A DNA stretch of 63,931 bases, filler included, from Intoshia linei (lineage: Eukaryota; Animalia; Orthonectida), in assembly GCA_001642005.1 (NCBI GenBank). It is 6 parts of 6 records of this genome, joined end to end, with 100 filler letters (N's around TTAATTAATTAA, not from the genome) between each part and the next. Parts side by side here need not be neighbours in the genome. Positions count along the whole stretch, not along the records: positions 20,024 to 31,982 come from LWCA01001122.1; 5 more parts are not named here. One strand, 5' to 3'. Below, piece after piece: positions 3,057 to 62,040 of the stretch. The number at the start of each line of letters is the position of its first letter. The stretch's first letter is position 1. The position numbers and the translations under genes were made by a program. The notes beneath the pieces were generated by a model. That model searched no databases. It was not told the DNA's origin and saw only the letters and a program-made list of their open reading frames with translations.

Positions 3057-7332
<4,276 letters not shown>

Positions 7333-8232: not shown

Positions 8233-8647
8233 GTCAAAATCGAGGTAACATTGCCATTTTTGAAAATTATCTCAATATAGAAAATTGATCCCTTTTTGAA
8301 CGAATCTTACCAAGTAATTTTTTATTACGAATTGATTTACATCTTTATTAATCATACTGTGTTTGCTTAGATTAAATAGATGTATAATAAACCATTGAGT
8401 ATAGAATAAAAGTAGATTTTTCTTTGCCATTTTATTTTAATATATGCTTAATTATGAAAATTAAAAATAATTTAAAGAGACTTACTGCCTTTTTTAAGTT
8501 TAATTAGGTTAATGTAACAACTTTTAATCTAACATCATTTAGAAATTTAAAAATGAAAATAATGTTGATAACGATATTAGTGATTTGGTCATTGATCTCA
8601 ATATTACCCATACTAAAGAATCTGCATCGTCAAAAGATTTTCAACTT
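8233..8647 (+). pseudogene. Partial duplicate of the RSK 5' region (copy of 3099-3517, introns retained)
   Basis: Near-identical to 3099-3517 with a few substitutions and one 4-bp deletion. No start codon; ends abruptly in exon 3. Confidence 0.9.
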
Positions 8648-9525
8648 AAATAAATTATCCAAAAAAATAAATATTTTGAAATGGGGTCCGTTACAATATT
8701 TGAGCCGAGAACCTCATGCATTATAAAATGAAATTTTTTTTATTTTCATTTCACTTAACCTATATTTGCACGTCATTTTATTTCATATAATTAATAATCT
8801 ACCATTGTTATCAACATTAATCAAGAAGAAAATAAAATATTTTATGTATCTAAAGCTTTTAATTTTAACAGAAAAAAGCTTTAGTATAATTATGATGCTA
8901 GTCATTTTAAGTTAACGTGTGTAGTGATATACGGATAAAGGAGGAAGATCAATTGTATTTTAAAGTATAAATTTATAGAAACAAATTTATTTTAATAATA
9001 AAGCTCGTGGTATATAAATGTGATTATCGTTCAAGTGTTGATATCGTTATTGTTGTACTTTGTTTATAATAAGTTTATTGTTATTGTATTGTGATACTAT
9101 AGATGTGCTACAACGTGTTACACAAATTTTGTACTTAAGAAAAATTTAGTCCGTTAATCAGAATTTTTTTACTAATTAAGTCAATTCATTACATTTTTTT
9201 ATCAAATTTTTAATCGATATTAAATTATATGGCGTTAATTAGAAATAATTACTCTCATTGCGGAAATATCCATTTTAACTTTATTTCATTTCTGTAAATT
9301 ATTTAAAATTTATAAAATTTTTCATGGACCCGTTGATAATGTTTGGTGTATATTATTTGGTCATGTATTATTGAAAAACTCATAATAACAAGAAATATGA
9401 CCATCTAATGGTTTTTATTTAAAAAAATTAGATTCCGTTAACGAGGGTGTTATTATATGGAAAATTCCATATTAACGGAATTTTCAATACCGTTAATAAG
9501 GACTTATACTGTATTTAATAAATTA

Positions 9526-19923: not shown

Positions 19924-20023
19924 NNNNNNNNNNNNNNNNNNNNNNNNNNNNNNNNNNNNNNNNNNNNTTAATTAATTAANNNNNNNNNNNNNNNNNNNNN
20001 NNNNNNNNNNNNNNNNNNNNNNN
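19924..20023. other. Assembly gap with artificial spacer (also 31983-32082, 49006-49105, 59145-59244, 60722-60821)
   Basis: Each is a 100-nt block of N with TTAATTAATTAA in the middle. Confidence 0.97.
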
Positions 20024-21750: not shown

Positions 21751-23152
21751 TCAATATGAATTGACTATTGTGACGTATGATCTGGGAAAAATTCCTCGAT
21801 GATATTTACCCTTATGTTCATATTCTCCAGTCCACCAGTCTTTATCGCGGTTTTCAACAACTGTGACATATAGGCCGGTTTTTAGTTCTAATTCATCAGC
21901 TTCTTGAGCCTTAAAATCATAATCGGCACGAACTACAATCTAAACGGTAAAGTATATAATGTAATACTCATAAACAAATAAACATTCCAAATTATATAAT
22001 ACATTAACTTACTGTTAATTTTAATTTTATACTTTAACCATACAAATCAAATCATAGGTAAAAATATGTGCATCTATAATCATACAGTTCGATATTTCTA
22101 TATCGTTTACGCAATTAAAATTATCTAAATGTGCCCATCCACCACCTAAAATCTTATCATAAATAAATTAGAATTTGAAAACCGATAAATGTCTATTTCG
22201 CCATTTATTTAAGAAACTGTGTCCCAGAAAGTGAAAAAACAAAAATATCAAGTCACTTTTTTCCGGCGCAAAGTGTACGATAAATTTCATTCTGAAAAAA
22301 CTGAACCTTCCAGTAAACAGCACAATTAACCTTTTTTAAAAATAAAAAACCAAGTCTAAAAGTCTTGAATTCTAAAATTCAATAAAGTTTTTCAAAATTA
22401 ATGCAATTTCATAAATTTGCACCTTCATGACCAAAACACCCATTATTTTAAAAAAATTATAATAACCAATAACTACTCAATATTAAACTATAATAATAAC
22501 ATTATACTGATATTACCTTATAATGATTAAAAAATTACGCGTTTCATGTCGACCAGATAAATGGTTTGAGTACGACTAACAGAATGTTTTTTATGGTATT
22601 CTACAAGATCGTTAATGGAATTGAATTTATGAACCCAAAGAAAAAAATTATTAGTAGAATCTCTCAATATTTTAAAATGTTGAACGGAAGCTCCAACTCT
22701 AAAAATGAAATATAAAACGGTAAAATAAAAAAAACTTGACAGACATTGAAAATCCACCTGGAGAGCTTTCGCTACTACGAACAATGAATGAACCATCAGG
22801 TTGAATGAGTTCATTTGTTTTTGTATCTCGATCCATTAAAATTTTTTCAGATTCACTCCTAGTAATCCTGGAAATGTACCATCTAAAAGTTAAATGAAAA
22901 ATTTATCAATTAAGAAATAAAAATGGAAATTTATTATAAATTACGAATAATTTTTCATCTCAACATAATTACTTGGAACATAACCGCACTGTGAATCAAC
23001 TTCAGCTTTATACCAATTTTTGTCATCATCCACATTAATAATCTACAAATAAGTACAACCGACTTAAAAATTACCTTTAATAAGTCGTTTCTGTTAAAAC
23101 CAATCTCATCTTGCTGTTTGGGTTTAAAATCGTGTTTTGCAAATGCTTCCAT
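21751..23152 (-). CDS. GRB2: GRB2/Drk/SEM-5 adaptor (SH3-SH2-SH3), 5 exons
   Basis: MEAFAKHDF..., [18 protein letters not shown]2 [17 protein letters not shown] and [28 protein letters not shown]-terminal SH3 [26 protein letters not shown]. Confidence 0.96.
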
Positions 23153-25740: not shown

Positions 25741-25977
25741 TTAATGTATGCCGTTTTTGTAGATTATTGGGATTTTAAGTAAGGCTGATATTTTTTCTGG
25801 GTCAATGAATATACCTTTCTGATTCAAAATGTGTCCTAAGAATTTTATTAGGGTAGAGCCAACAATGTATTTAGAAGATTTTAATTTAACCCTTTCACTA
25901 CTAAGTGTTTTTAGTAGACGTCTTTTACATAAATGACTTTCTTGTACACTCCGTCCACTAATTACAACAACAGTCAT
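25741..25977 (-). mobile_element. Ty3/gypsy reverse-transcriptase C-terminal fragment
   Basis: KLKSSK..IKFLGHILNQKGIFIDPEKISAL matches the gypsy RT pattern FLGHxIxxxGIxxDPxK. Confidence 0.75.
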
Positions 25978-26129
25978 ATTTCTATCAATAATTATAATTA
26001 CAATACTGGATACATATCAAAAATTTGGCAGAATATAAAATTAGCGAGATGCTATTACATGTTCATTTAAAAATTGTAAAATTATTAGTTCTTAATCAAT
26101 TCATACCATATTTAGTAAATTAGTGGAAA

Positions 26130-27016
26130 TATAGAGTGTCCACAATTATAACAACACAACTGTTTATTAATTATAATGACTATATATACTACATGAATAT
26201 TTCTTTCAATAATTAATTGACTTTCTTCCAACCTTTAATACTTCGATTGCACGATTTTTTACAGAATCTGATAATTTTAAAAACGTTTCATCCAAAATGT
26301 CCTCCCATGAATCCATTACGACTTTAGTTAGTTCATTAATATTGTTTATTTCCACCATAAAGACATCGAACCATTATACCCCAAATATTTTATATGGATT
26401 GAGATCTGGAGACACAGCAGGCCAGTTCATAATATTAAAAAAATGATCATTTAAAAATAATTTTGTCGATCTAGGTTTGTGACAACTCGCATTATCTTGT
26501 TGATAGATTAAATTTTCGTTGTGAGGAAGGAAAGGTATGAGGTTATGTTCTATAACTGTTGGGTACTTGATAGAGTTTATATTACCATTTACTTGGACAA
26601 GACATTTTATACCACCACTTGAGAAAGCTCCCCATATCATAACACCACCTCCACCAAATCATCTGACCCTTTCTGGCAATTCATGGCTTAAGTCATGACA
26701 GTAATAATTGTAGTAATCGGGACCATCTAGATTGAACTTTTTTTTCATCAGTCCAAATGATATTTTTGGAATTTATATTACTCTTCAAATAATTTTCTGC
26801 CCACTTTACTCTGGAGTCTTTGTGTCTTGCTAGTAATTTTGGCTTTGGTTTAATTTTAACAAGGATGATATTTTGGTTTGACTTGATAACATTGTAAACG
26901 GAAGATTTTGATATATTTATTCCCTTAGAGCACATAATCGTCGCAACACCTCTTACTCCTTTATTAGGATTTAAAGTTACCTCCCTTATATTTAGCAGGT
27001 ATTGTAGAATCCCCAA
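26130..27016 (-). mobile_element. Tc1-family transposon, decayed transposase
   Basis: IIWTDEKK, FGGGGVMIWGAFS, QQDNASCH, WPAVSPDLNP. Contains a stop and frameshifts. Confidence 0.9.
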
Positions 27017-27019
27017 TTT

Positions 27020-27653
27020 GTTCGTCAGACATGGTAATTAATTGTGTTCGTAACTCAACATACGTTTTTCCAGTACCTGTTAAATCAAGCATCTGTTTAA
27101 TCATGTTATGAGCTGGAAGTAATCCATTCTTCAAAAATACCTACTTCATAATGTCACTAATTTCACTTTTCGTTCCACTCAGACAATTAAAAGCATCTTC
27201 CAAGCGTGATATATAAGAAAGTAATGATTCAGTAGTTTTCATCCTTGAATTAGAGTTTTTGTAGAATTTCCCTTTGAGAAAATTCAGAGGTTGATCGTCT
27301 CAGAGACAGCAAGGCTTTCCACATATTTTCTACGTTTCCGTCATTCATCGGTCGAAAGGCTTCTAAAACTTGTAGAATTAAGTGTGGAATTCATTGTACT
27401 ATCAGATAAAATAGAATTGGGTAGATTTTCTCTATGCCTTTTACTGGTTAAATTTCTTTTGCAAACTGGGCAATGTACTCTTGTCGGACAAATGATAATA
27501 AATCCATTTAATTCAATCCATATATTTAATTCTGAATATCTCATTATAAAAATATTGTAATATTAAAATAAAATAAATAAGAGAGTAACGAAGTAAATAT
27601 AAAAATAAAACAAACAATTGTGAACGAGTGATAATAATAATTAAAATATTACA
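27020..27653 (-). mobile_element. Decayed LTR-retrotransposon gag with putative short LTR (27556-27653)
   Basis: RMKTTESLLSYISRLEDAF..FLKNGLLP is gag-capsid-like. The 98-bp segment upstream is bounded by the inverted repeat TGTAATATT/AATATTACA (TG...CA). Confidence 0.5.
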
Positions 27654-28099: not shown

Positions 28100-28760
28100 T
28101 AATATTTGTTCTTTTTATCAGTTCCGTGAAACATTTAATCAAAAAACTTTTCATCAGACACAAAGCATCATTTTATCTGATTTAGATAAATTGAGATTAA
28201 ACATTTTGTTCACAATCAATTCCAATATCTATTGGATTTTTTCTATACGATATAGTTTCACAGGTAATTATATCATTTGACACTCTTGACAATATTGACT
28301 GAGTGAAAACTTTCAATTCCCAAAATAGCTTTGCATGATCAGCAGTATCGGATTGAAATTTTGCGTTCATAATTTCAAAAGAACGTAAAATTGGAGCGGC
28401 AAATTTTAGGTACATCAAATTTTTAGTAGTATAAAAATTAAATATATTTTGCGCTTTGGTTTGTGTTCCTCTCCGAATTATTAATCGGTCATTATTTATA
28501 ATTTTGTACAATTTTCTATATTCTTCAAGTCTAAGAGGTGATTTATTGAAAGAAGAATATGTGTCTCTTATTAAAATATCTATGATATCGGGAATAATAT
28601 CAAAGGCGTACGAGCAGGCCAAATGAAGTGAATGGCTGATACATTTCACCAATATATTATTAGGTATACGGGTTTTTAGTTTAGAATACAATGAGTTATG
28701 AGTACCACAAAGGTTGTTCTCTCAAAGGTTGTTGTACGCAAGAGACTATTTGCAGATGTA
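28100..28760 (-). mobile_element. hAT transposase fragment
   Basis: NLCGTHNSLYSKLK..VKCISHSLHLACS (CxxH motif), FEIMNAKFQS. Confidence 0.75.
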
Positions 28761-28913
28761 TTTTATTGTTTCCAAAGTAATATATCGATATTAAATTGAA
28801 TAATGATATATTTAATTTTATAAGTAACACAGTAGTTTCCTCAAGTAGATTTTTTGCAAATTATATGATCTGTAAACATCTAAATATTATAAATTAATTT
28901 TTAATATTCATTA

Positions 28914-29350
28914 TTGAAAGTCTCCCAAGCTTACAAATCTTTCCAAATCACCCGTTGTGGGACAACGTAGTATTTCAATTCTTTTGATAGGATCAGGCAT
29001 CAACCTGACTACACCGTGGAATTCGACCAGAATATTGCCACAGAAGTAGCTAACTGACGTTATCAATACTTTAGCTGACAAATTATATTGATCTGCCAGC
29101 GATTTTACAGTATGACTTGTTATATTTTGCTAGCGCAACTTATCAAGCTGTCGTCTCCCATAAATATAGCATACTGAATGTCTGTACATTCATTTATCAA
29201 GTCAGTACAGGATATCATGTTATAAATCGTGTTTACGATAGCTGTGCTTGGGTCACCGCTTTGTGTCTGACATGTTTTCTGGAAAGCTGTACCGTCTCTT
29301 GCCCTAGAAGTAGATACTTCGTGGAGTCTGTTCCATATGACACAATCGTT
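28914..29350 (-). other. Endogenous viral element: alpha-like (+)ssRNA virus RNA-dependent RNA polymerase fragment (motifs B-E)
   Basis: IWNRLH..QTQSGDPSTAIVNT (motif B) and YAIFMGDDSLI (motif C). After one frameshift near 29120: LADQYNLSAK (D), SYFCGNILV (E), PDPIKRIEIL and ERFVSLGD. Order and spacing match tobamo/virga-type RdRp. Visibly more GC-rich than its flanks. Confidence 0.9.
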
Positions 29351-29803
29351 TTTAGTCTTCACAGTTACAGTCAATGATGGGTTATTTAATTTTATTATAT
29401 CATTTTGTACGGTTTTAGATGTGCCATAGATGAAAATGTGATCTCTTAGTATATGATCTACTTCATCGTATTTGCACCGTTCCGCTGCTTTTCTAAGCCG
29501 GTATACGTAAATCTCTATATCTTCCTCCGATTTAATACGCATGGTAGAAAATTGTAGTCTTTCATACATTATATTTACTGAATCCCACGGAATTATTCAT
29601 ATTTTACTTCCTTAAGGTTAATTTTTGTTGCCCTCCTTTCCGATACACAATTTTAGTAAATTTAATTCGTCAGTTATTTCTGTATTTACTAGTTTTAGCA
29701 TAATAATGTTATCATCGAAATCATTAATCCATTCGTTTGGATTTTGGCTTAATTTGCCATGTAACTTTTTTATGGGTGGATTTATGATGAAATTTTCCGT
29801 CAT
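29351..29803 (-). mobile_element. Ty3/gypsy gag (frameshifted), fused in frame to the viral RdRp fragment
   Basis: EWINDFD..LLKLCIGKEG, then ERLQFSTMRIKSEEDIEIYVYRLRKAAERCKY..LRDHIFIYG..NPSLT, typical of gypsy gag capsid. Confidence 0.8.
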
Positions 29804-29831
29804 GGATTAATTAATTAAGCCATTAAATAAT

Positions 29832-29991
29832 TGTAATGTAACAGATAAGTAATATATAATATTTATTGAATTAATTAAGTTAACGTATAATAAATTATTT
29901 ACTACTATATTATTATATATTAATTCGATTTAAAAGTGTGATTTGAATTGAGTGATAATGAGAATAAGGTATGTACTTTATTAACATTACA
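29832..29991 (-). mobile_element. Putative 160-bp 5' LTR of the gag-EVE element
   Basis: Minus strand begins TGTAATGTTAA and ends TTACATTACA (TG...CA with terminal inverted repeat), about 30 nt upstream of the gag ATG. Confidence 0.6.
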
Positions 29992-30579
29992 GTGATGATA
30001 TATATTCAGTACCAATTTAATAAGTACTTAAAAATACCAATTATGTATCAATAACACAGTACAACATTTTTCGAAAAATTTCAAAATAGATTTTTCTAAC
30101 CTATATCGTTTTGTAGCTGGTATTCTTGTGATTCGAATAGTGTGGGTCACTTTATCAAGTCAGATCGACGTTTCGAGATATAATAGGAATAAAATACCAT
30201 AATTACAAAAAAGTTATATTGATTGTGATCTAAAACCCACTATTTGACCTTTAACAAAGTTATGGATTCAACCAAAAATTTTGCTTGTGGCAATATACGT
30301 ATGTATCTACCATAACGAGAAAAAAAATTGACAAAATTTAAAGTATTTGAGAATTTAGCCTGTGGCGTTCCTCTTATATTTATTTTAATTTATATTTAGT
30401 TATTTCTTTAGAAAAATTAGTATTTTTGAATAGATTTCTACTTTTATGAGTGATATATACATCCAAGAGTCTACTTTTCATTCTATCTTTAGCAATGCTA
30501 AGGTTAGATCGAGATTTTTTTTATACATTAAAAATAATGTAAAATTAAAATTTAATGAATTTTTGACAACAATCTAGAA

Positions 30580-31982: not shown

Positions 31983-32082
31983 NNNNNNNNNNNNNNNNNN
32001 NNNNNNNNNNNNNNNNNNNNNNNNNNTTAATTAATTAANNNNNNNNNNNNNNNNNNNNNNNNNNNNNNNNNNNNNNNNNNNN

Positions 32083-39754: not shown

Positions 39755-41705
39755 ATGATTGTAAATGAATTTCGAATACCACTTTCCATGTCGGTAAAAG
39801 AATACATGATTGGACAATTATATATGATTCAAAAAAGTCTATCTCCGAAATAGTAGTTCCGCTTCTGTTGAAATTTTGGGTATATTTAAATAAATTTTGT
39901 AAATTTTGTAGTTAATGAAGAATATGAGGATACATTTCATAACGTGGGACAGTACACACACAAAATGTACAAATTGTCCAACATAACCTACTACATACTA
40001 TACCAGCATGGTTGAGATCATTATTAGGAGTATGTGAAATCAAGATTGAAGAACATTCTTTGAATAATTATCCGACTACATTAACTAAATACAGTTGCAA
40101 TTTCTCTAAAAAATTTTCGCTTGAAATAAAATCAAAATATCTATCAGACACAGGGTCTTTCTAAAAATGTTTTTAATTTGCCAGTGGATGAATATAAGAA
40201 TGTAGCTATTGAATATATTGATATAAGAAAGGATAAAGATAAGGATTCCTCAGAAAATATAAAAGCCAATGAAGATCCGACTGTTTATGTATCTAGTACT
40301 CAACCGCATCGATGCCCGCTTAAACAGCATTGGTTAGAAGATTTTCAAAATGATAATATACCCAAAGTTTGCATGTGTGCTTATAAATTGTGTATAGTCA
40401 ATTTTGATGGGTATATTGGGTTCATAATAATCATATAATTCGTTTTAGAATATGAAGGTTTCAAAGGAAAATTGAGTATTTTATTCTTGATTTTGCTATT
40501 AAAAATACACTGAGGTTAGCTCATCGACAGGCCTGGGTTTGGCAAGATGAATATTATCGTTTAAAATTAGAACAATTGCGAGATTTGGAAGTACAGGCAG
40601 CTAAATTGTTATCGGAAACAACTGAACCTTCAAAAGAATGGAAAAAATTAGGTTACATTATCTAATTGACACTAATTTAATCATCTTTTTTAAATTTAGA
40701 GGATGATGTTTACTATAATGCAATTTTTTAGTTTTTAAAATAATAAAAATAAACATTATCATAAATGTCAACCTTAAAAAAGATTGTTTTCACGATCAAA
40801 ACCACAGATTACCTTTTTTTAAATGAAAACAGCCATATAATTTCACAAAAATTACAGATGGTACAGCTGTATCCTGTTAACATAGACAAAAATTTTTCAA
40901 TATTTCTATTTTTTTTAAATAAAATTCCACGGTATTCCTAGTTCGTTTATTTTAATTTTGTTTAAAATTTATATCAATATATTTATAATTTACGTAAATA
41001 TTTTGCAAATTTTTTAATTTAGAATTCTATTTGAATTTCAAAGTATTACAAAGAGCTAGCAAACAAACTATGAAGGAAATATTACATTTATATTCATACG
41101 TTTGGACATCTGAATATTTTATAAACGAAATTGTAAATATTAATTTGAGATTAATCAAAATTATTATAGATAGAAAATCCTCTTATATTTATTGGAAGTA
41201 GAGAAAAAAGTTACTTACGTTGCTAGTTGAAAATGCGTAAAAATTCACGCGATGTAGTTGAATACTGGAAAAAATATGGTTGCATAATTTTATACATTAC
41301 ATTATACACACATAATGACCAATGATTCACATAAATACAATAAAAACATTTATGCGAAACAATGCAATGCCTAATGGTTATTTTCAATTTTGCAATGAAA
41401 ACATGTACAAACGCCAAAAAAATAAACTGTTATACCTAAAAGATTTACTGGCGAATACAAGTGCCTGTGTAGTTGCTGGTTATGGCTCTAGAAAAGATAT
41501 TGGCATCTACAAATCCATTGGATTATCATCAGATTCTATATATGTTAATAGTAAATTATTTAAAAACATTGGATTCAATGCTACTCCAATAGAAAATTAT
41601 TCTGAACATTTAAAAACCATTAAAAAGTTACAATATCACTACAACAATTCCAATTTAGACGAATTATCAAAACGTAACGGACCAATTTTCAAAACTATCA
41701 TTTAG
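39755..41705 (+). pseudogene. PITPNM: PITPNM/RdgB/Nir2-like gene with multiple disablements (PITP and LNS2 domains)
   Basis: PITP domain: MIVNEFRIPLSMSVKEYMIGQLYMIQK, GQYTHK, IPAWLRSLL, MCAYKLC, AHRQAWVWQDE. LNS2 domain: DVVEYWKKYG, VAGYGSRKDI. Needs several frameshifts (about 39835, 39850, 39985, 40160, 41320) and passes in-frame stops (about 40453, 41224). Confidence 0.8.
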
Positions 41706-41772: not shown

Positions 41773-43602
41773 ATGCATTACATTATCCAAAATGAAAAAA
41801 ATACCTTTGAAGATCATGATATGTAATTAGTTTTACGGAAATATGTATATTTTGTAGTAAATGTTGTGTTTGTGGTACGATAATTGAAAACAACCCGACG
41901 AAAATGTGCATTTCTTGTGTTAAATCCAATATCAATATTACATCTGATATTGCCAGATCGTATGCGATTCATCAATGCCGATTATGTTTAAGATTCTTGC
42001 AACCACCCATGACATGGATAAAAGCAGACATGCACTCTTCCGACCTGTTATCAATCTGTCTCAAAAAAATAAGACGATTGAACAAAGTAAGTGTATATTT
42101 GATGATGATATTAATGCATAGTTTAAATTAATAAATGCTGTTTTTTCATGGACAGAACCTCATAGCAAGAGATTAATTGTCAATATTACAGTTCAAAAGG
42201 AGGTACGCATCAAAGAAAATTATTCAATGTTTAGGTAACCAAAAAAGCTATATTGGAAGAAGAAATTTCTATAAAATACATTATTGCTGCCCAAACGTGT
42301 AACGATTGTCATCGAATTGAAGCTAAAGACTATTGGCGTGCTGTGGTGCAATTGAGACAAAAGGTTAATATGTTGTGCATGTTATTTACGTTTTAGACGT
42401 TGTTTCGCAAAACTATATTATATATGGAACAAAAAATCGTAAAATCATGCGCTCATAAAGATTGTACAAAAATTGATATGCTTTCAGGTTGGTACATATG
42501 GGTCAACTTTAATTATATATTAGATGGAATAGACTTTTATTTTGCTCAACTGCAAGATGCGAAAAAACTTAATGACTATATTATGTGTAATACTCCATCC
42601 AAGTAAATTATATTTATATTATATACTATTTTTAGATACCACACGTCTAAGGAACTTGTTACACATAATGAACATACCAGTGTATATACGTATAAAAATA
42701 CATTTTCTATTGAAATTTCTCCAATTTGCAATGTATGTTAAAATTGTGACCGTTAATTATTTTAATTAGGAACACGTTGTTTGTCTCCCAAAAAAATTAG
42801 CAGTAAAATTAGGAAATTTGTCGCAGATTTGTGTTTGTATAAAAATTGCTCAAGACATCCACCTTATTGATCCTACCACAGCTAGAAGTAATTTTTTACG
42901 GTTTTTTGTTATCAAATTTAGTAACTAACATTACCAAGGAATTGTACTGGAAATGTCCTTTTAAACCTTTGTTTGATTTGAAAAAAATGGTAAAATTTAT
43001 AGTGTTGGATATCAATAAAATTGAAAAAGCACAATTACCGCATGTATCTGGTGCTAGTAGAATATCTAAAAAGGTTAATAATATCGATTCCAATTTAACC
43101 TGTTTAGCACAGTTTAGCTGAAGCGTGGGTCACGTTGCAGGATAGAATAGGGCAGGATGAAATTATATACACGAAAACACATTTGGGAAATATTCTAAAA
43201 GTTGGCGATCTAGTTATGGGGTATGATATATTTAAATTATTTTTAACATTATAATTATACAGATATCACTTGGAAAACGCCATGTGTAACAATAGTGATT
43301 TTGACCAAATGAACTGTGATGTAATTCCTTCGGTTGTTTTAATAAAAAAAAAATATGACCCAGAAAATGGAACAATTCGAGAACGAAAATATAAACGCAT
43401 GGAACAAATTAATCCAACAAATACAGAAGACGTTATTGACTATGCCGCCAATTTGATGGAGTATTCTAGCGACTATGAGGAAAGCGGTATTGCTAATAGC
43501 AGTTTCTTTAACTTTTTATATTTTGATACTCCTTTATCAAAAAAATTGCAGTGGTTCATAAAATGGGCTCTATCTCCACGGGTGGTGAGAAAAGCGTACT
43601 AA
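41773..43602 (+). CDS. NMD3: 60S ribosomal export protein NMD3 (multi-exon)
   Basis: CCVCG..NPTKMCISC, CRLCLRFLQPP, WTEPHSKR, CNDCHRIEAKDYWRAVVQLRQK, GIDFYF, TKTHLGNILKVGDLVMGY. Confidence 0.95.
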
Positions 43603-47440: not shown

Positions 47441-48803
47441 ATGTTTTGCAACAGGTCAACATGGGGATTTATCTTAATGATTTTACTTTCGTTCACTTAT
47501 TTCGTAGTAGAACTAGTATTTGGACATTATAGTAACACCTTATCATTAATATCTGATGCATACCACATGTTTGGAGATGTGTTTAGTTTTTGCATTGGAT
47601 TATTCGCATTAATGGTAATTTGAAAATTATTTATGTCTAAAATTCATTAAATTTCATCAATAGTATTCGAAAAAAAGCAGCTCCAGCTACAGTTATGGAA
47701 GATCAAGATCGATAATATTAGGAGGTTTAATAAATGCAATTTTTATGATGACATTATGTTGGACAATAATGATTGAAATATTTATAAAAATTTTCTCAAT
47801 ATATACAATTTTAAATTATAATGGAGAGGATAATGTGGAAATGGAACGTGTTTATTTCATTCAAAAAAAGAATTTTTTGTCAATCTTGTGGGTTGCTATT
47901 TTAGGGTTAATAATAAATATAATTGGATTTTTTGTTATAAATCACAGTGGTATATTAAAATTAATAATAATTAATAAACAACTTTTAGATCACTCACATG
48001 GTTCACCTAACACGGAAAAAAATGATAAATCAACTAACGAGGAAATTATAGTAATGCAAAAATTAAAAACTAATAGCACAAAGCCAAATTGTTGCAAAAA
48101 AATTACAAATTTTATCAAAAATTATAGAGGTTTAAAATTGCACTTGTTTTGTAATCAATTTTAAATTTTATCAGTAAATCCAAATTTGAACATTAGAGGA
48201 GTTTTATTACATATACTTGGCGATATTATGGGTTCAGTAATGGTTATAATCAATGCAATTATTATGTTACAATTAGATTATGAATGGGTTCAATATTTTG
48301 ATCCTATCTGCAGGTAAATTGATAATGAATTAATTTTTATTAAAAATTTAGTTCAATTATAGTGGTGATATTGATGATTGCCACCATTCCAATAAGTTTT
48401 ATTTGTAAACCAAAATGTAAAACCAAAATTTAGTTCGAAAAACTTGCAGAATATTAATGCAAAAGGCGCCAGATAGATATAATTTAAAACAAATAAAAAC
48501 TGATTTAATAAATGAGGTAAAAATATAAAAATACTCTTTTTAATTCAAAATAGATACCACAAATAGTGAAAATTGAATCTGTGCACATTTGGTCTCTCGA
48601 TGGCCAAAAAAACATTTCAACTATTTCGATAATTTTGTATGATAATTTCAAACTTCTTGAAATTCTATGTAAAAGTAATTTTTGATATTGAAATTAAAAT
48701 TTATTTAAATTAATATATTCAAAATTCAGAGGAAATCAGAAATTTTTTTGCCATAAGAAATTTGGACAACATAAATATTGAAATTAATTATATACAAAAA
48801 TAA
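47441..48803 (+). CDS. CDF-family zinc transporter, SLC30A1/ZnT1-like
   Basis: ELVFGHYSNTLSLISDAYHMFGD (TM2 HxxxD), SYGRSR..LGGLINAIF, HSHG loop, NIRGVLLHILGD (TM5 HxxxD), YFDPIC, ILMQ, VHIWSL. Confidence 0.92.
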
Positions 48804-49689
48804 ATGTACCACTTTTAATTTATGTTTACTGATTTATTCATTCAGAATATACATGCATGTATAGGATTTCTTTATCAAATGATGGAATAGATCAGATTTT
48901 CTGCATGATGGATACTAGGGTGTTTCAAAAAGTAGAAATTTTGCGAGTTTCTCTTAGCCTTAGTAAAAATTAAGCTAGTATTTATATTTAGAGTACTATG
49001 TGACTNNNNNNNNNNNNNNNNNNNNNNNNNNNNNNNNNNNNNNNNNNNNTTAATTAATTAANNNNNNNNNNNNNNNNNNNNNNNNNNNNNNNNNNNNNNN
49101 NNNNNTTGTAAACGTCGCGTTTATATTCTTGTATTTTTGATAGGGTTAATATAATATTGTAAAAATTAATGTTATTCATTGTTAATTTTGGTGGATTATG
49201 GCATTTATTATATCGGTTTATATCATTAAAATAAATATCTTTAACTTTTTTTACGAAATTATCATTTATATCTGGTTGACATGTATCCCATGATATGGAC
49301 CAACCAAAATATCTCCAATTCTTGTGGTCATTTTTGGTATTTTAAAAGATTGCAATAAAATTGAATTGAAATTTATATTGATATAAAAATAATGAACGTA
49401 AATCAAATATTCAATAGCGTAAAATATTTAATATATGTGCTGCAGTATTTATAAGGCGAGATGAATAATAAATAATGATTAGATATTAATTAATTCAAGA
49501 TTATATTTCAATTCAATTATAATGGTAGTGTAATCTGTCCAAGAAAAAAAAGGGAAAATATTTTGATTATAATATTTTATAATAACAAATCTCAACAGGA
49601 TTATTTTTAATTGAAAAATAATTTTAATCTCTTAATAATAGTCACTCGAATTATAAACAAAAGACTTAATGGAAGAGACTAACATCAAC

Positions 49690-51561: not shown

Positions 51562-53863
51562 TTCTTTGGTTATCTCCAAAATATATTCCAATTACATTAA
51601 GATCTAAAATCGTTATCGATGATGCACGAATATCTGTAAAAAGAATATATCCAAATGAATGGCAGTTATCATTAAAAAATGTATCCGTATCAGATGCAGG
51701 GGATTATACATGTGTGCTTAACAACGTCGGACAGCACAGACAAATATTTTCTCTAGTTGTTAATTGTAATTATCTCATCCTAAATGGATACTTAATATTA
51801 ATTTTTCTAAAATGACCATTCGGATCAACGTAAAATGTGTTTAAATATAACTGTACTAATAAGTTTTTCATGGTACTGATAAACTCACTATAAATAGGTA
51901 TTAAACCGGACAGTAAATATTCATTTAATCAACAGGTCGTTTCAACTAAAAGTGTTATCTCAATTGAGTAACATCGGATAATTTTTATATATCCTTTAAA
52001 GATACTGATGAGTCGATATAAAAATTGACTCAAATCATTCCCATTAATTTTCAACCCACGTTTTAGATTGTTAATTCTAGTGACAAATTTTTATGAACTT
52101 TTGAATTAAAATTTGTGATATTTTAAAATTTATTAATTTTACAATTTAGTTGTCCCGAGAATTGATGAAATGACTTCTAGTAAACAACAAATATATGCTA
52201 ATATTGGCACAACTGTAAATTTGTTTTGTAATGTAACAGGAAATCCAATCCCAACAATAAAATGGTTGAAAATGACAAATATCAATCTCTATAATGGTAT
52301 AATATACATACTGAATTGTACTAAACTTCATAAAATATCATTTAATACGCGCATTTTAACGTGTGTGCAATTTTTATTTATTATTATAATAATGTGAATA
52401 TTTAATATGATATTTATATAATTATAATTAAAATTTCAGAATTCAAAATTGATACAATGTCAATATTACTTAAAAACGTCCAAAAATCGGATTCAAATTT
52501 TTATAAATGTGTAGCTTCGAATGAAATCAAAAAAAATGTTTACAGATTAATAGAATTAATTGTTCAATGTAATGTTTGTTTATGGCATGTACTTTTATTA
52601 TATGGTTATTTTAATTTTAGTTTATAACTAAATTAGATCCGCCCGATGTTCAACTACTAAATTCACGAATTGGACAACAACAAGGGAAAACTTCGATTTT
52701 GAAATGTAATATTGATGCAGTCCCCGTGCCTTTTTCAGTATATTGGGAAAAGAATGATGTAACTTTATCCAATGACGAACGTTTTAAAATTGAAACGACT
52801 ACCTTTGAAAATAAAATAATATTAATGATAACTATCAATAATGTGCAAATAGACGATTTTGGATTTTATTCTTGTATTGCATCTAATAAGTTGGGTACCT
52901 CATTGGATGTTGTTACTTTATATGGTATTTAATTTATTATATATTATATTAAAATGTACATAATATAATACTTCATATAATAATTTTAACGGCGGTTAAA
53001 TTAGATTTTAAAACGTGTCCCATAATTAAAAGTTTTTTTTTAATTTAAGGTTTATTTTATTTTTAAACAAAATGGCAAATTGGTTTTTTGATCCTGAAGG
53101 ATTCAGTTTTGGGAAATGAAGCATAGATAAAAACACCACTTGCGAAAAACTGTATTAGAAATTGTGATTTGTTAGATTCAAAGACTGTTAATGTTTTAAA
53201 TATACGATATAATACAGACACAGGAATTCAATTTTATATAAGTAAAGGACCAGCTTGCTTTTACGTACTTGGTACAAACAGTAGCTAGATCTGCCGAGGG
53301 CCGTGTTTTTAATCTATTAGACAGTGTGTGTATGATATTAAAAACAATCAAATTATAGTTACAATTTAAAAAACATGAATCCTAGAGAATTTTAAATTTT
53401 AAATACCCGTTGTACATATTTTTTACATATTGTTTTGTTTTAGAAATTCTAAAAATCGTTACAACACAAATATATCACACAAATAAGGATGTAGATTTTA
53501 CTAATAGTTTAATTTATTCTCACAATCGATCAACAACCATTAAGCCTGTCCACAAAAATGATAAAATTAGCAGTACCAACTTATTTAAAAGTATATTTTA
53601 TAAAATAATTTTCATATTATTAACACGTCTACCCAATCAAACAAAAAATAGCAACTAGCAAGTAAAAATGAAAGTTTTTATTTCAAACTCAATGTGGAAT
53701 TTGAATTTGTTAACTTTCAGTAATATCAAAGAATGGTTGCATTTAAAATTATTATAAAATGCTAAAAATGTTATAATTTGTTTTTGAGGGTTAGAAAATG
53801 TCGAGTACATTATCTTGTTTCAATTTTAATTTTTATATTTACCATGTTCTAATTTTAATTTAA
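51562..53863 (+). CDS. Lachesin/DIP/IgLON-like three-Ig-domain adhesion protein (5' exon or exons not seen)
   Basis: Ig1 WQLSLKNVSVSDAGDYTC; Ig2 VNLFCNVTGNPIPTIKW..FYKCVASN; Ig3 LKCNIDAVP..DDFGFYSCIASNKLG. S/T-rich stalk and a hydrophobic GPI-signal-like tail (FYIYHVLILI*). Confidence 0.85.
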
Positions 53864-59144: not shown

Positions 59145-59244
59145 NNNNNNNNNNNNNNNNNNNNNNNNNNNNNNNNNNNNNNNNNNNNTTAATTAATTAA
59201 NNNNNNNNNNNNNNNNNNNNNNNNNNNNNNNNNNNNNNNNNNNN

Positions 59245-59692
59245 GCAGTTATGGAGGAAGAACTGTCAAACACAGATTTGAAATTGTAGACAGTTGTAGA
59301 CTCATAATGGGCTTAGATTTAATAAAAAATTTAAATTTGATATTCAGTAGGAAAAAAAAATCGTTAACCTCGTTTCAAAGTTCTCTCTAGATATTAAAGT
59401 TAAAGAGGGCGCTATTCCTGTCATATGTATAACAAGAACGTTCCCGTATGGTCTCAATGATCAAGTAAAATGTAAAATGGATGAGTTATTGGCAGATGAT
59501 ATTATTGAGCGAATAGAAAGAAACGAATGGGTAAGTCCATTGCTTGTAGTGCAAAAGAAAGATGGAGATATTAGACTTTGTGTTGACCTGCGATCATTGA
59601 ATGAAAATATTATTGTAGATTTGCATCCTTTTGATTGAAGATATTTTAAATAAAACGCACGGAAGTATATGCTTTTTAAAAATTGATCTTAA
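59245..59692 (+). mobile_element. Ty3/gypsy pol fragment (end of protease and start of RT)
   Basis: IMGLDLI, RTFPYGL, EWVSPLLVVQKKDGDIRLCVDLRSLN, FLKIDL. Confidence 0.88.
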
Positions 59693-60721: not shown

Positions 60722-62040
60722 NNNNNNNNNNNNNNNNNNNNNNNNNNNNNNNNNNNNNNNNNNNNTTAATTAATTAANNNNNNNNNNNNNNNNNNNNNNN
60801 NNNNNNNNNNNNNNNNNNNNNATTTTAAAAATACACACTTTTAGTGCTAATTGCCCATCGAATTCTAAAATTTTCTAAAAAATGTGACACCCTAATGAAC
60901 ATATATGAATGGCGCTAATAATATAATTAAAACTTTCGACACGTCCCACTCAATAATAATCCCGTGATTACTTTTACATAAAAATATTTTTTTGAATGAT
61001 TTATTAACAGTTCCCATAAAATCAGTTATTTTCAATGATCGAAATTTGTTTTCTTATTGAATTTCATCAATTATGCAGTCAGCAAAAGACCCAGGCTTTC
61101 TGTGAAATAAATTTTCTCACCGTTTAAACTTCTTCTCCGATCACTGTAGTAACTACAGTGTAGTTGATCAATCGATTCATGGCAAAAAGTCATATTGATA
61201 TAATATCATATATTGTATATTTTAATAGTGTATGATTTTTTATAAAATTGGGACCACGCCATTGTAAAGATTATGGAAGTTCATTATTTTATTGAAAATG
61301 TTCAAATTCATTATAATTAATTTAGAAGTAATGGTTTTTAATTTTGATATTATTAATTTCTTGACCAAATTTTACGAATAAAACGAACGTTTTTATCAAA
61401 TTTTAACGTTTTTTTTCACTATGGTTAAAACCGTCTATTTTAAGCTTATTAATTTTTACCTTTCAGATGCATTTAATTTTTTTGTTTAATGGCATCTTAT
61501 TAAAAGAATGTGAATTAACATAATTTGAAATTTACCTCTAAATCGGGTGACGTTTATATCTTTTGTAAATCAAAATGTGATATTATGGGGTTATATGGTT
61601 TTTTCCAATTAATTATATTGTATAAAACTAAGAGTAAAGTGACAAGTTAAACATTGTTTCTCAAAATTCTTTTTTACGTCAAAACATGAATGTTACCATA
61701 CCAAATATAATTATACTAATTTTGTACAATCAAATGCGATTTAAACAGTGAAATGTATAATAAATATTATGCTTTTCATAACTGCCGGCTATCTTCAATA
61801 TTCATTGAAATGTATTCATTTCGCTTGCCAACCAAATTGAGTCTGACACCCGTGATCAATAACCAAGGAATAAAACTGATTTTAGTTTTGAAAAAACGAC
61901 TTAACGATTTGAAAATATGACGATTTAAAAATAATGAAAAAGTGACTATGTTTTAAAAACGTGACGTTAGTTACGAAAAACGTCTGTACACTACTGTAGT
62001 GATGATAACGGAAAAACCAAATATATAAACTGTATTTAAA

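Follow-up and report, generated by a model that had tools for sequence, protein, structure and literature searches.

How did part of an RNA virus polymerase come to lie in the DNA of Intoshia linei (Orthonectida), and what kind of virus did it come from? RNA viruses of Martellivirales are not known to have a DNA stage. The locus that raises the question lies on the minus strand of a 63,931-nt stretch of AT-rich animal DNA from the assembly GCA_001642005.1 (hereafter the window), which joins six parts from six records; the gaps between the parts (19924-20023, 31983-32082, 49006-49105, 59145-59244, and 60722-60821) consist of two 44-N runs and one constant 12-nt spacer, which is not a biological repeat. 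The locus sits on the contig at 20024-31982, which also carries an SH2 exon (22530-22835), a Tc1 transposase remnant (26696-27037, minus strand), both identified with Pfam, and repeats common to other contigs of the window. Elsewhere in the window, Pfam matches marked host exons for a phosphatidylinositol transfer protein with LNS2 (40130-41702), NMD3 (41820-43599), cation efflux (47667-48164), and Ig I-set (52621-52929). Reverse-transcriptase fragments lie at 25768-25980 (minus strand) and 59384-59629 (plus strand), and a duplication of ~430 nt with 98-99% identity at 3099-3525 and 8233-8655, 5.1 kb apart, while no tRNAs were found within the window.

The viral polymerase fragment

We scanned 28 frames against Pfam, where the family RdRP_2 (PF00978) has a curated cut-off of 27 bits. 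The stop-to-stop ORF at 29123-29596 (frame 1) matched this family with an E-value of 1e-9 and 38.3 bits (profile positions 248-319), and frame 2 matched it at 28914-29129 with an E-value of 1.3e-8 and 34.6 bits (positions 325-391), such that each piece alone exceeded the cut-off and the two were collinear, in profile order. Piece 1 (29123-29353, minus strand) holds motifs B and C, with similarity extending to about 29141, and piece 2 (28914-29129, minus strand), which follows a frameshift and has two stops at its end, holds motifs D and E and a DPIKR segment. In BLASTP comparisons with Wenling toga-like virus, piece 1 was 43% identical (30/69) to residues 2443-2510 and piece 2 was 42% identical (27/65) to residues 2525-2589, and the two comparisons gave E-values of 2e-17 and 2e-10. 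Judged from its sequence, the fragment is a Martellivirales-type (RdRP_2) polymerase piece in host DNA. An origin from a retroelement reverse transcriptase or a cellular RdRP was rejected, as the Pfam matches are to viral families; the 140-aa ORF at 29123-29542 (minus strand), on record as predicted protein P0001, matches two of these, PF00978 and PF00680.

Together, the two pieces span only profile positions 248-391 of 440, and the fragment is thus truncated. Motif A is absent, since a relative starting at profile position 218 begins with this motif and the match in the window starts at 248, and the 140-aa product cannot work as a polymerase because motif A is missing. One frameshift, between about 29140 and 29100, separates the pieces, and the ~40 nt between them match the length of the Wenling toga-like protein's linker, so that an intron would not fit. 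Neither piece has internal stops, motifs B to E are recognizable, and motif B reads QTQSGD; the signs of decay are the truncation and the frameshift, the latter also present in read contigs. The GC content of the fragment was 39.6%, versus a median of 26.3% across 5994 sliding 437-nt segments, and the highest value in any such segment not overlapping it was 36.6%. These few lesions and the unchanged GC content suggest a young insert.

A word-based search for homologues of piece 1 returned only the window's own protein, P0001 formed a single-member protein cluster, protein searches found no near-identical longer protein for the viral piece, and close relatives in viral_contigs numbered none (0 of 7 stretches confirmed). 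When a profile of six polyproteins was run against 1879 frames of the window, it recovered only the two RdRp pieces and no other part of the polyprotein, such that the methyltransferase and helicase fragments for which the original prediction had proposed a genome search were not seen in the window. Much else in that prediction was borne out: six-frame translation placed the quoted peptides on the minus strand at this locus, the single frameshift put at about 29120 falls within the interval given above (also in the contigs of runs X1 and X2), and the raised GC content relative to host DNA, the lack of introns, and the proposed RdRP_2 affinity, with matches to viral proteins in BLASTP, all held.

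Fusion to a Ty3/gypsy-type gag remnant

Read 5' to 3' on the minus strand, the locus comprises an LTR-like segment, the 5' part of a gag, the viral piece, an AT-rich spacer, and an unrelated repeat; the in-frame fusion to a Ty3/gypsy-type gag and the LTR-like segment had both been missed by the original prediction. The first 79-81 codons of the ORF that holds motifs B and C are retrotransposon gag rather than virus. This gag part (29354-29803, minus strand) runs in one frame with three stops at 29597-29620. Its section at 29354-29542 shares 55 of 63 residues (87%) with P0002, which is recorded as a hypothetical protein from Intoshia linei and continues beyond the shared part into further gag and protease-like sequence, and a gag profile matched 29360-29581 with an E-value of 1.5e-21. 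The N-terminal piece at 29621-29803 is collinear and matched the gag profile with an E-value of only 2.4; an ATG at 29803 opens this 61-codon piece, in the same frame, beyond the three stops. Among 20 homologues of P0001 in a representative library, one was the protein itself, 7 matched the viral part, and 12 matched the upstream part; 9 of these 12 contained Retrotrans_gag (Pfam), and 4 of the 12 contained integrase and/or RT-RNase H domains in gypsy order, which links the gag to elements arranged protease-RT-RNase H-integrase. The gag element is multi-copy, with other copies in runs X1 and X3 that differ at 29598-29682. These copies carry 103 different letters in place of the 85 in this stretch, which is the one with the three stops.

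The LTR-like segment (161 nt; 29831-29991, minus strand) begins with TG and ends with CA, has 8-nt perfect inverted ends, and ends 27 nt before the gag ATG; it is likely the 5' LTR. As a measure of chance, a TG start whose 8-mer recurs inverted 100-400 nt downstream was seen at 95 of 120152 positions. The outer edge of the segment falls on loose ends of reads at 29991/29992, the point at which an adjoining high-copy repeat (29992-30054) stops. Loose ends of read contigs occur at both edges of this repeat (in X1, at 29992 in 25 contigs and at 30054 in 18), with a summed depth of 4301 in the bin 30000-30199. No second copy of the LTR-like segment was found in the window, and residues 64-277 of P0002 had no tblastn match there. 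Neither pol nor a 3' LTR follows the viral insert. A primer-binding site and a target-site duplication could not be demonstrated at the locus either, and the act of integration is thus not directly seen. The gag and the LTR-like segment are best read as a remnant of a Ty3/gypsy-type element and not as a whole element.

Behind the viral piece, the AT-rich spacer (28722-28911), in which 60-nt segments contain 13-22% GC, is not the rest of gag, pol, or a second LTR. It is followed by a 174-codon open frame of a repeated element (28200-28721, minus strand), diverged copies of which occur in runs X3 and X4. This frame may resemble a hAT-type transposase; it had no match in Pfam or PDB, and its single-sequence fold reached a pLDDT of only 34.5. 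The reverse-transcriptase fragment at 25768-25980, on the gag strand and 3.4 kb downstream, may stem from the same element as the gag and have been displaced.

The boundary between gag and virus, which was placed at the protein level only, is abrupt. The match to P0002 breaks off at 29354, and matches to virus proteins set in at 29356-29347, leaving no gap between the two. A profile of the virus clade begins at about 29356, right where the resemblance to gag ends, and the viral piece follows gag in sense and in frame. Parts of 28300-30000 occurred in 5 of 6 listed sequencing runs (more than half of it in one of them), none of which is recorded as RNA, and contigs of four runs were aligned to the locus. 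A contig from run X1 aligned to 28894-29483 with 3 other letters, no gaps, and a depth of 34.5, on the order of the flanks, and it bridges the gag-virus junction, reaching 129 nt into gag and ~460 nt to the viral side. A contig from run X2 covers 28972-29229, also ungapped, and since both align without gaps, the frameshift was not introduced when the window's sequence was assembled; the two runs stem from one sample of guessed DNA type that is possibly the assembly's source, and thus confirm the assembly but do not represent independent animals. Both contigs differ from the window at 29051, a non-synonymous change and one of the 3 differences in 590 nt, which implies a second allele or copy or an assembly error. 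At the downstream junction, the X1 contig overhangs by ~20 nt, below the 31-nt bar, with a depth of ~40 in the bin 28800-28999. Integration, as originally proposed, thus has read backing at its upstream (gag) junction, while the overhang at its downstream one falls short of that bar. Runs X3 and X4, from another study, have contigs on the gag-like and downstream repeats and none over 29000-29399, and such contigs show presence only.

Placement of the virus

We compared the fragment with reference polymerases obtained by motif scans of viral_contigs, which gave at least 398 loci (at least 303 with a motif and at least 179 with a long enough core). A further 46 cores joined this set, which was then thinned, partly by identity and partly by hand, to 72 references. 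Ten references were looked up by their neighbouring gene, which allowed 8 to be named (three tobamoviruses, Negev virus, Culex pipiens-associated Tunisia virus, Xingshan nematode virus 2, Beihai barnacle virus 2, and passion fruit green spot virus), while alphavirus, endornavirus, and bromovirus-like rows were labelled by motif and length only, with an endornavirus motif that we assume to be diagnostic. When the integrated piece (a non-retroviral endogenous viral element, hereafter the EVE) was read through with an X at the break, its best identity was to Wenling toga-like virus (41% over 143 columns), most of that virus's group was 33-36% identical, and identity was 36% to the unclassified locus L317 and 27% to the best alphavirus row. 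Among the matches listed from 189 reference cores, the top two summed BLAST scores belonged to Wenling and Shenzhen toga-like viruses.

The EVE fell inside the Wenling toga-like/Stellipti group in all four trees; it covers 37% of the full-core alignment, and its branch is long and carries no other sequence. Support for the group was 99/94 in a tree of 73 rows (LG+G4), 100/94 with 42 rows and 390 columns, 98/91 with 32 rows under a mixture model, and 95/96 with 38 rows and the 150 EVE columns. The group joined the alphaviruses with support of 99/96, 98/95, and 95/95 in the first three trees, and this sister link was not recovered in the fourth. An AU test rejected a grouping of the EVE with 14 tobamo-, nege-, and kita-like rows (p = 1.6e-6; 42 rows, 390 columns), rows that were assigned after the first tree had been seen and of which 8 were named via a neighbouring gene; with 38 rows and 150 columns, the same constraint gave p = 5e-4, or 3e-4 without the tobamoviruses. 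A constraint placing the EVE with alphaviruses was not rejected (p = 0.34), and no free tree places it there. An endornavirus affinity was rejected, as the best endornavirus-like score among the matches listed was 31.6+27.3 bits versus 63.9+42.0 bits. The locus L317, a possible neighbour, fell outside the supported group in all four trees; its RdRP_2 core (L317:45-2549) lies close to where the toga-like/alphavirus branch begins, at a position that is not firmly supported.

Named relatives of the EVE are Wenling toga-like virus, Shenzhen toga-like virus, Dermatophagoides pteronyssinus virus 4, and Stellipti viruses 1 and 3, and all share with the window the QTxSGD pattern in motif B. This pattern occurred at two loci in viral_contigs (L001 and L002), both of the toga-like group, and at four loci in metagenome_contigs, none of which was an RdRp. 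L002:1-4383, an IMG/VR contig with a 1460-codon open frame, is a further member of the group, next to P0020. The trees and AU tests overturn the virga/nege-like placement of the original prediction, and motif B of the fragment is not of the QR(K/R)SGD type expected for Virgaviridae, negeviruses, and Kitaviridae. The suggestion of an undescribed virus lineage in that prediction stands, given a best identity of 41%. We conclude that the virus likely represents an undescribed lineage of the unclassified Wenling toga-like/Stellipti group and is likely an unnamed distant cousin of alphaviruses. In the available text of PMC9241645, the Stellipti viruses are listed directly after Togaviridae for the Martellivirales tree (an order of text in which the branching is not visible), and the part of PMC12633358 consulted describes fluke Martellivirales as related to Togaviridae.

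Origin of the fusion and its known counterparts

How the viral piece came to stand behind gag is, we believe, probably explained by a template switch of a Ty3/gypsy reverse transcriptase onto the genome of a toga-like virus, which would have made the now likely inert fossil. A virus of the Wenling toga-like/Stellipti group would have been present in a germline cell of its host, probably an orthonectid, where viral plus-strand RNA may have met the element's reverse transcription and ~440 nt were presumably copied. The hybrid cDNA would then have integrated. Plus-strand copying during the element's reverse transcription would account for the sense orientation and the abrupt junction at ~29354. 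What is seen today is the LTR-like segment, the 5' gag with its three stops, and the viral piece with its one frameshift, with no pol or 3' LTR behind; the 3' half may have been lost or displaced by later insertions. The gag fusion and the LTR-like segment point to this integration route, and a plain insertion into gag is disfavoured because it would leave the rest of gag downstream, where none was found. An in-frame and sense join has by itself a chance of about 1 in 6, and the downstream flank, which is not the element's 3' half, speaks against the template switch. In its present state, the locus is likely a dead relic.

A parallel fusion in the same virus group argues for the template switch. 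P0026 (ENA), a protein of 2429 aa on a 27.8-kb contig, combines in one frame a helicase (residues 1083-1331), RdRP_2 (1763-2145), and a gypsy-type RNase H (2201-2327), and its residues 1763-2327 also include a Ty3/gypsy RT-connection. It falls in the same group as the EVE in the 73-row tree, and in-frame gypsy fusions were thus seen in 2 of 10 sequences of this group examined. P0026, known as a protein, appears to be a second, much longer capture from this group. In both cases, the same segment follows motif E and the viral part breaks off no more than about 20 residues beyond it, although a common breakpoint in two cases may be chance. The toga-like group may have been captured repeatedly, perhaps as it replicates where gypsy particles assemble.

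It is unlikely that a real EVE arose instead from cDNA made in trans (e.g., by a LINE enzyme) and patched, at a DNA break, into a gypsy copy that was already dead and whose remainder was deleted. The absence of the element's 3' half behind the insert would fit such a repair, as would a gag that has three stops and differs from other copies at 29598-29682, and the region is rich in transposon debris, which makes landing beside one likely. Yet patching requires two events in the same place, an insertion and a deletion, the viral piece is not followed by a poly(A) tract, and both the sense in-frame join and the second such fusion in the same virus group tell against it. We regard as very improbable that the LTR-like segment still drives a transcript and that the hybrid was kept as a source of antiviral small RNAs or as a gag-RdRp decoy protein. 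The missing motif A, the frameshift, and the upstream gag stops oppose such a function; the stop-free pieces, the recognizable motifs B to E, and a GC content that has not drifted to the host level would agree with it, but youth alone gives the same features, and no ortholog was found for testing selection. Two published observations speak for such a function: in mosquito cells, piRNAs that derive from EVEs counter virus (PMC6797480), and eBxnv-1 yields a transcript (PMC5177903). Least credence of all goes to viral RNA or cDNA of the sample (from the parasite or its host animal) having been joined to genomic DNA in library or assembly, for although the viral part occurs in one sample only, the run type is guessed, and the downstream overhang is short, the 590-nt contig that spans the gag junction is unbranched and at the depth of its surroundings, the frameshift is present in two runs, and neither another polyprotein part in the window nor a near-identical longer protein was found.

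The locus is likely a record of a toga-like virus having infected a tiny parasitic animal, probably an orthonectid. Tentatively, it may be the first characterised virus sequence of Orthonectida, from a deep unnamed branch of an invertebrate alphavirus-sister group, captured by a gypsy element in an animal whose genome ranks among the most reduced, and belonging to a group that is maybe repeatedly captured. In the records examined, hosts or sources of the toga-like group have so far been a Wenling marine sample, mites, and polyclad flatworms, and the locus extends the host range of this poorly sampled group next to Togaviridae to a probable orthonectid, which bears on where the alphavirus lineage came from. 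The sequence can also serve as a marker when orthonectids or their hosts are searched for the living virus. That an LTR-gag-virus junction is preserved in an animal other than an arthropod supports the view that non-retroviral EVEs generally can form by template switching, though the locus itself shows neither a new mechanism nor a function.

One sentence in the available text of PMC6396948 (2019) states that Intoshia linei has a viral-family RdRP gene, probably from a virus, and there gives no sequence, tree, or context. The figure key of that paper places PF00978 and PF00680 among viral classes, and its filter, as described in the same text, requires a near-complete domain, which the 140-aa ORF is not; the hit may have been this ORF or another, longer one. 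A virome screen that includes Orthonectida (PMC11097642, available in part) may bear on the claim to a first virus. Our search by titles and the starts of abstracts, which left out most subscription journals, found no paper on an orthonectid virus or EVE.

Compared with the Wenling/Stellipti group, the EVE has the same QTxSGD..TA..NT motif B and DPIKR segment, and shares FVSLGD with Wenling toga-like virus; the group members are exogenous viruses with polyproteins of 2500-2700 aa, whereas the EVE comprises ~145 codons in host DNA that are 33-41% identical to them. The Stellipti viruses were found in the polyclad Stylochus ellipticus and are, in the available part of PMC9241645, unassigned Martellivirales with Wenling toga-like virus as best match. 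Togaviridae are more remote. Alphaviruses are sister to the toga-like group in three full-core trees, and nsP4 structures were the only PDB matches of piece 1, all weak (E-values of 0.017-0.11), but identity is ~27% and motif B is unlike that of the nsP4 structures in the alignment.

Fusions of the same kind are known from other animals. In Aag2 cells of Aedes aegypti, the portion of PMC6797480 available describes a CFAV EVE and virus-Ty3/gypsy hybrids, and proposes that the reverse transcriptase of an LTR element recombines with viral RNA by copy choice without homology, giving rise to EVEs beside LTR and gag. As at our locus, the viral fragment adjoins the LTR and gag of a Ty3/gypsy element; those hybrids involve other virus families in an insect host, and that locus makes piRNAs, whereas ours is known from sequence alone (PMC6797480). 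The closest described case, as far as the accessible text of PMC5177903 goes, is eBxnv-1 of Bursaphelenchus xylophilus, also a truncated (+)ssRNA virus RdRp in an LTR retrotransposon of a non-arthropod parasite. It differs in being a nodavirus in a Bel/Pao element with both LTRs, in its 570 aa with all catalytic residues, and in having been expressed and PCR-confirmed, whereas the Intoshia locus has a gypsy-type element, one LTR, no motif A, and a frameshift (PMC5177903). Both the mechanism and this kind of EVE are therefore already known from mosquito and nematode, and what is new, within the literature searched, is the lineage of the virus, the probable phylum of its host, and the junction that has been preserved.
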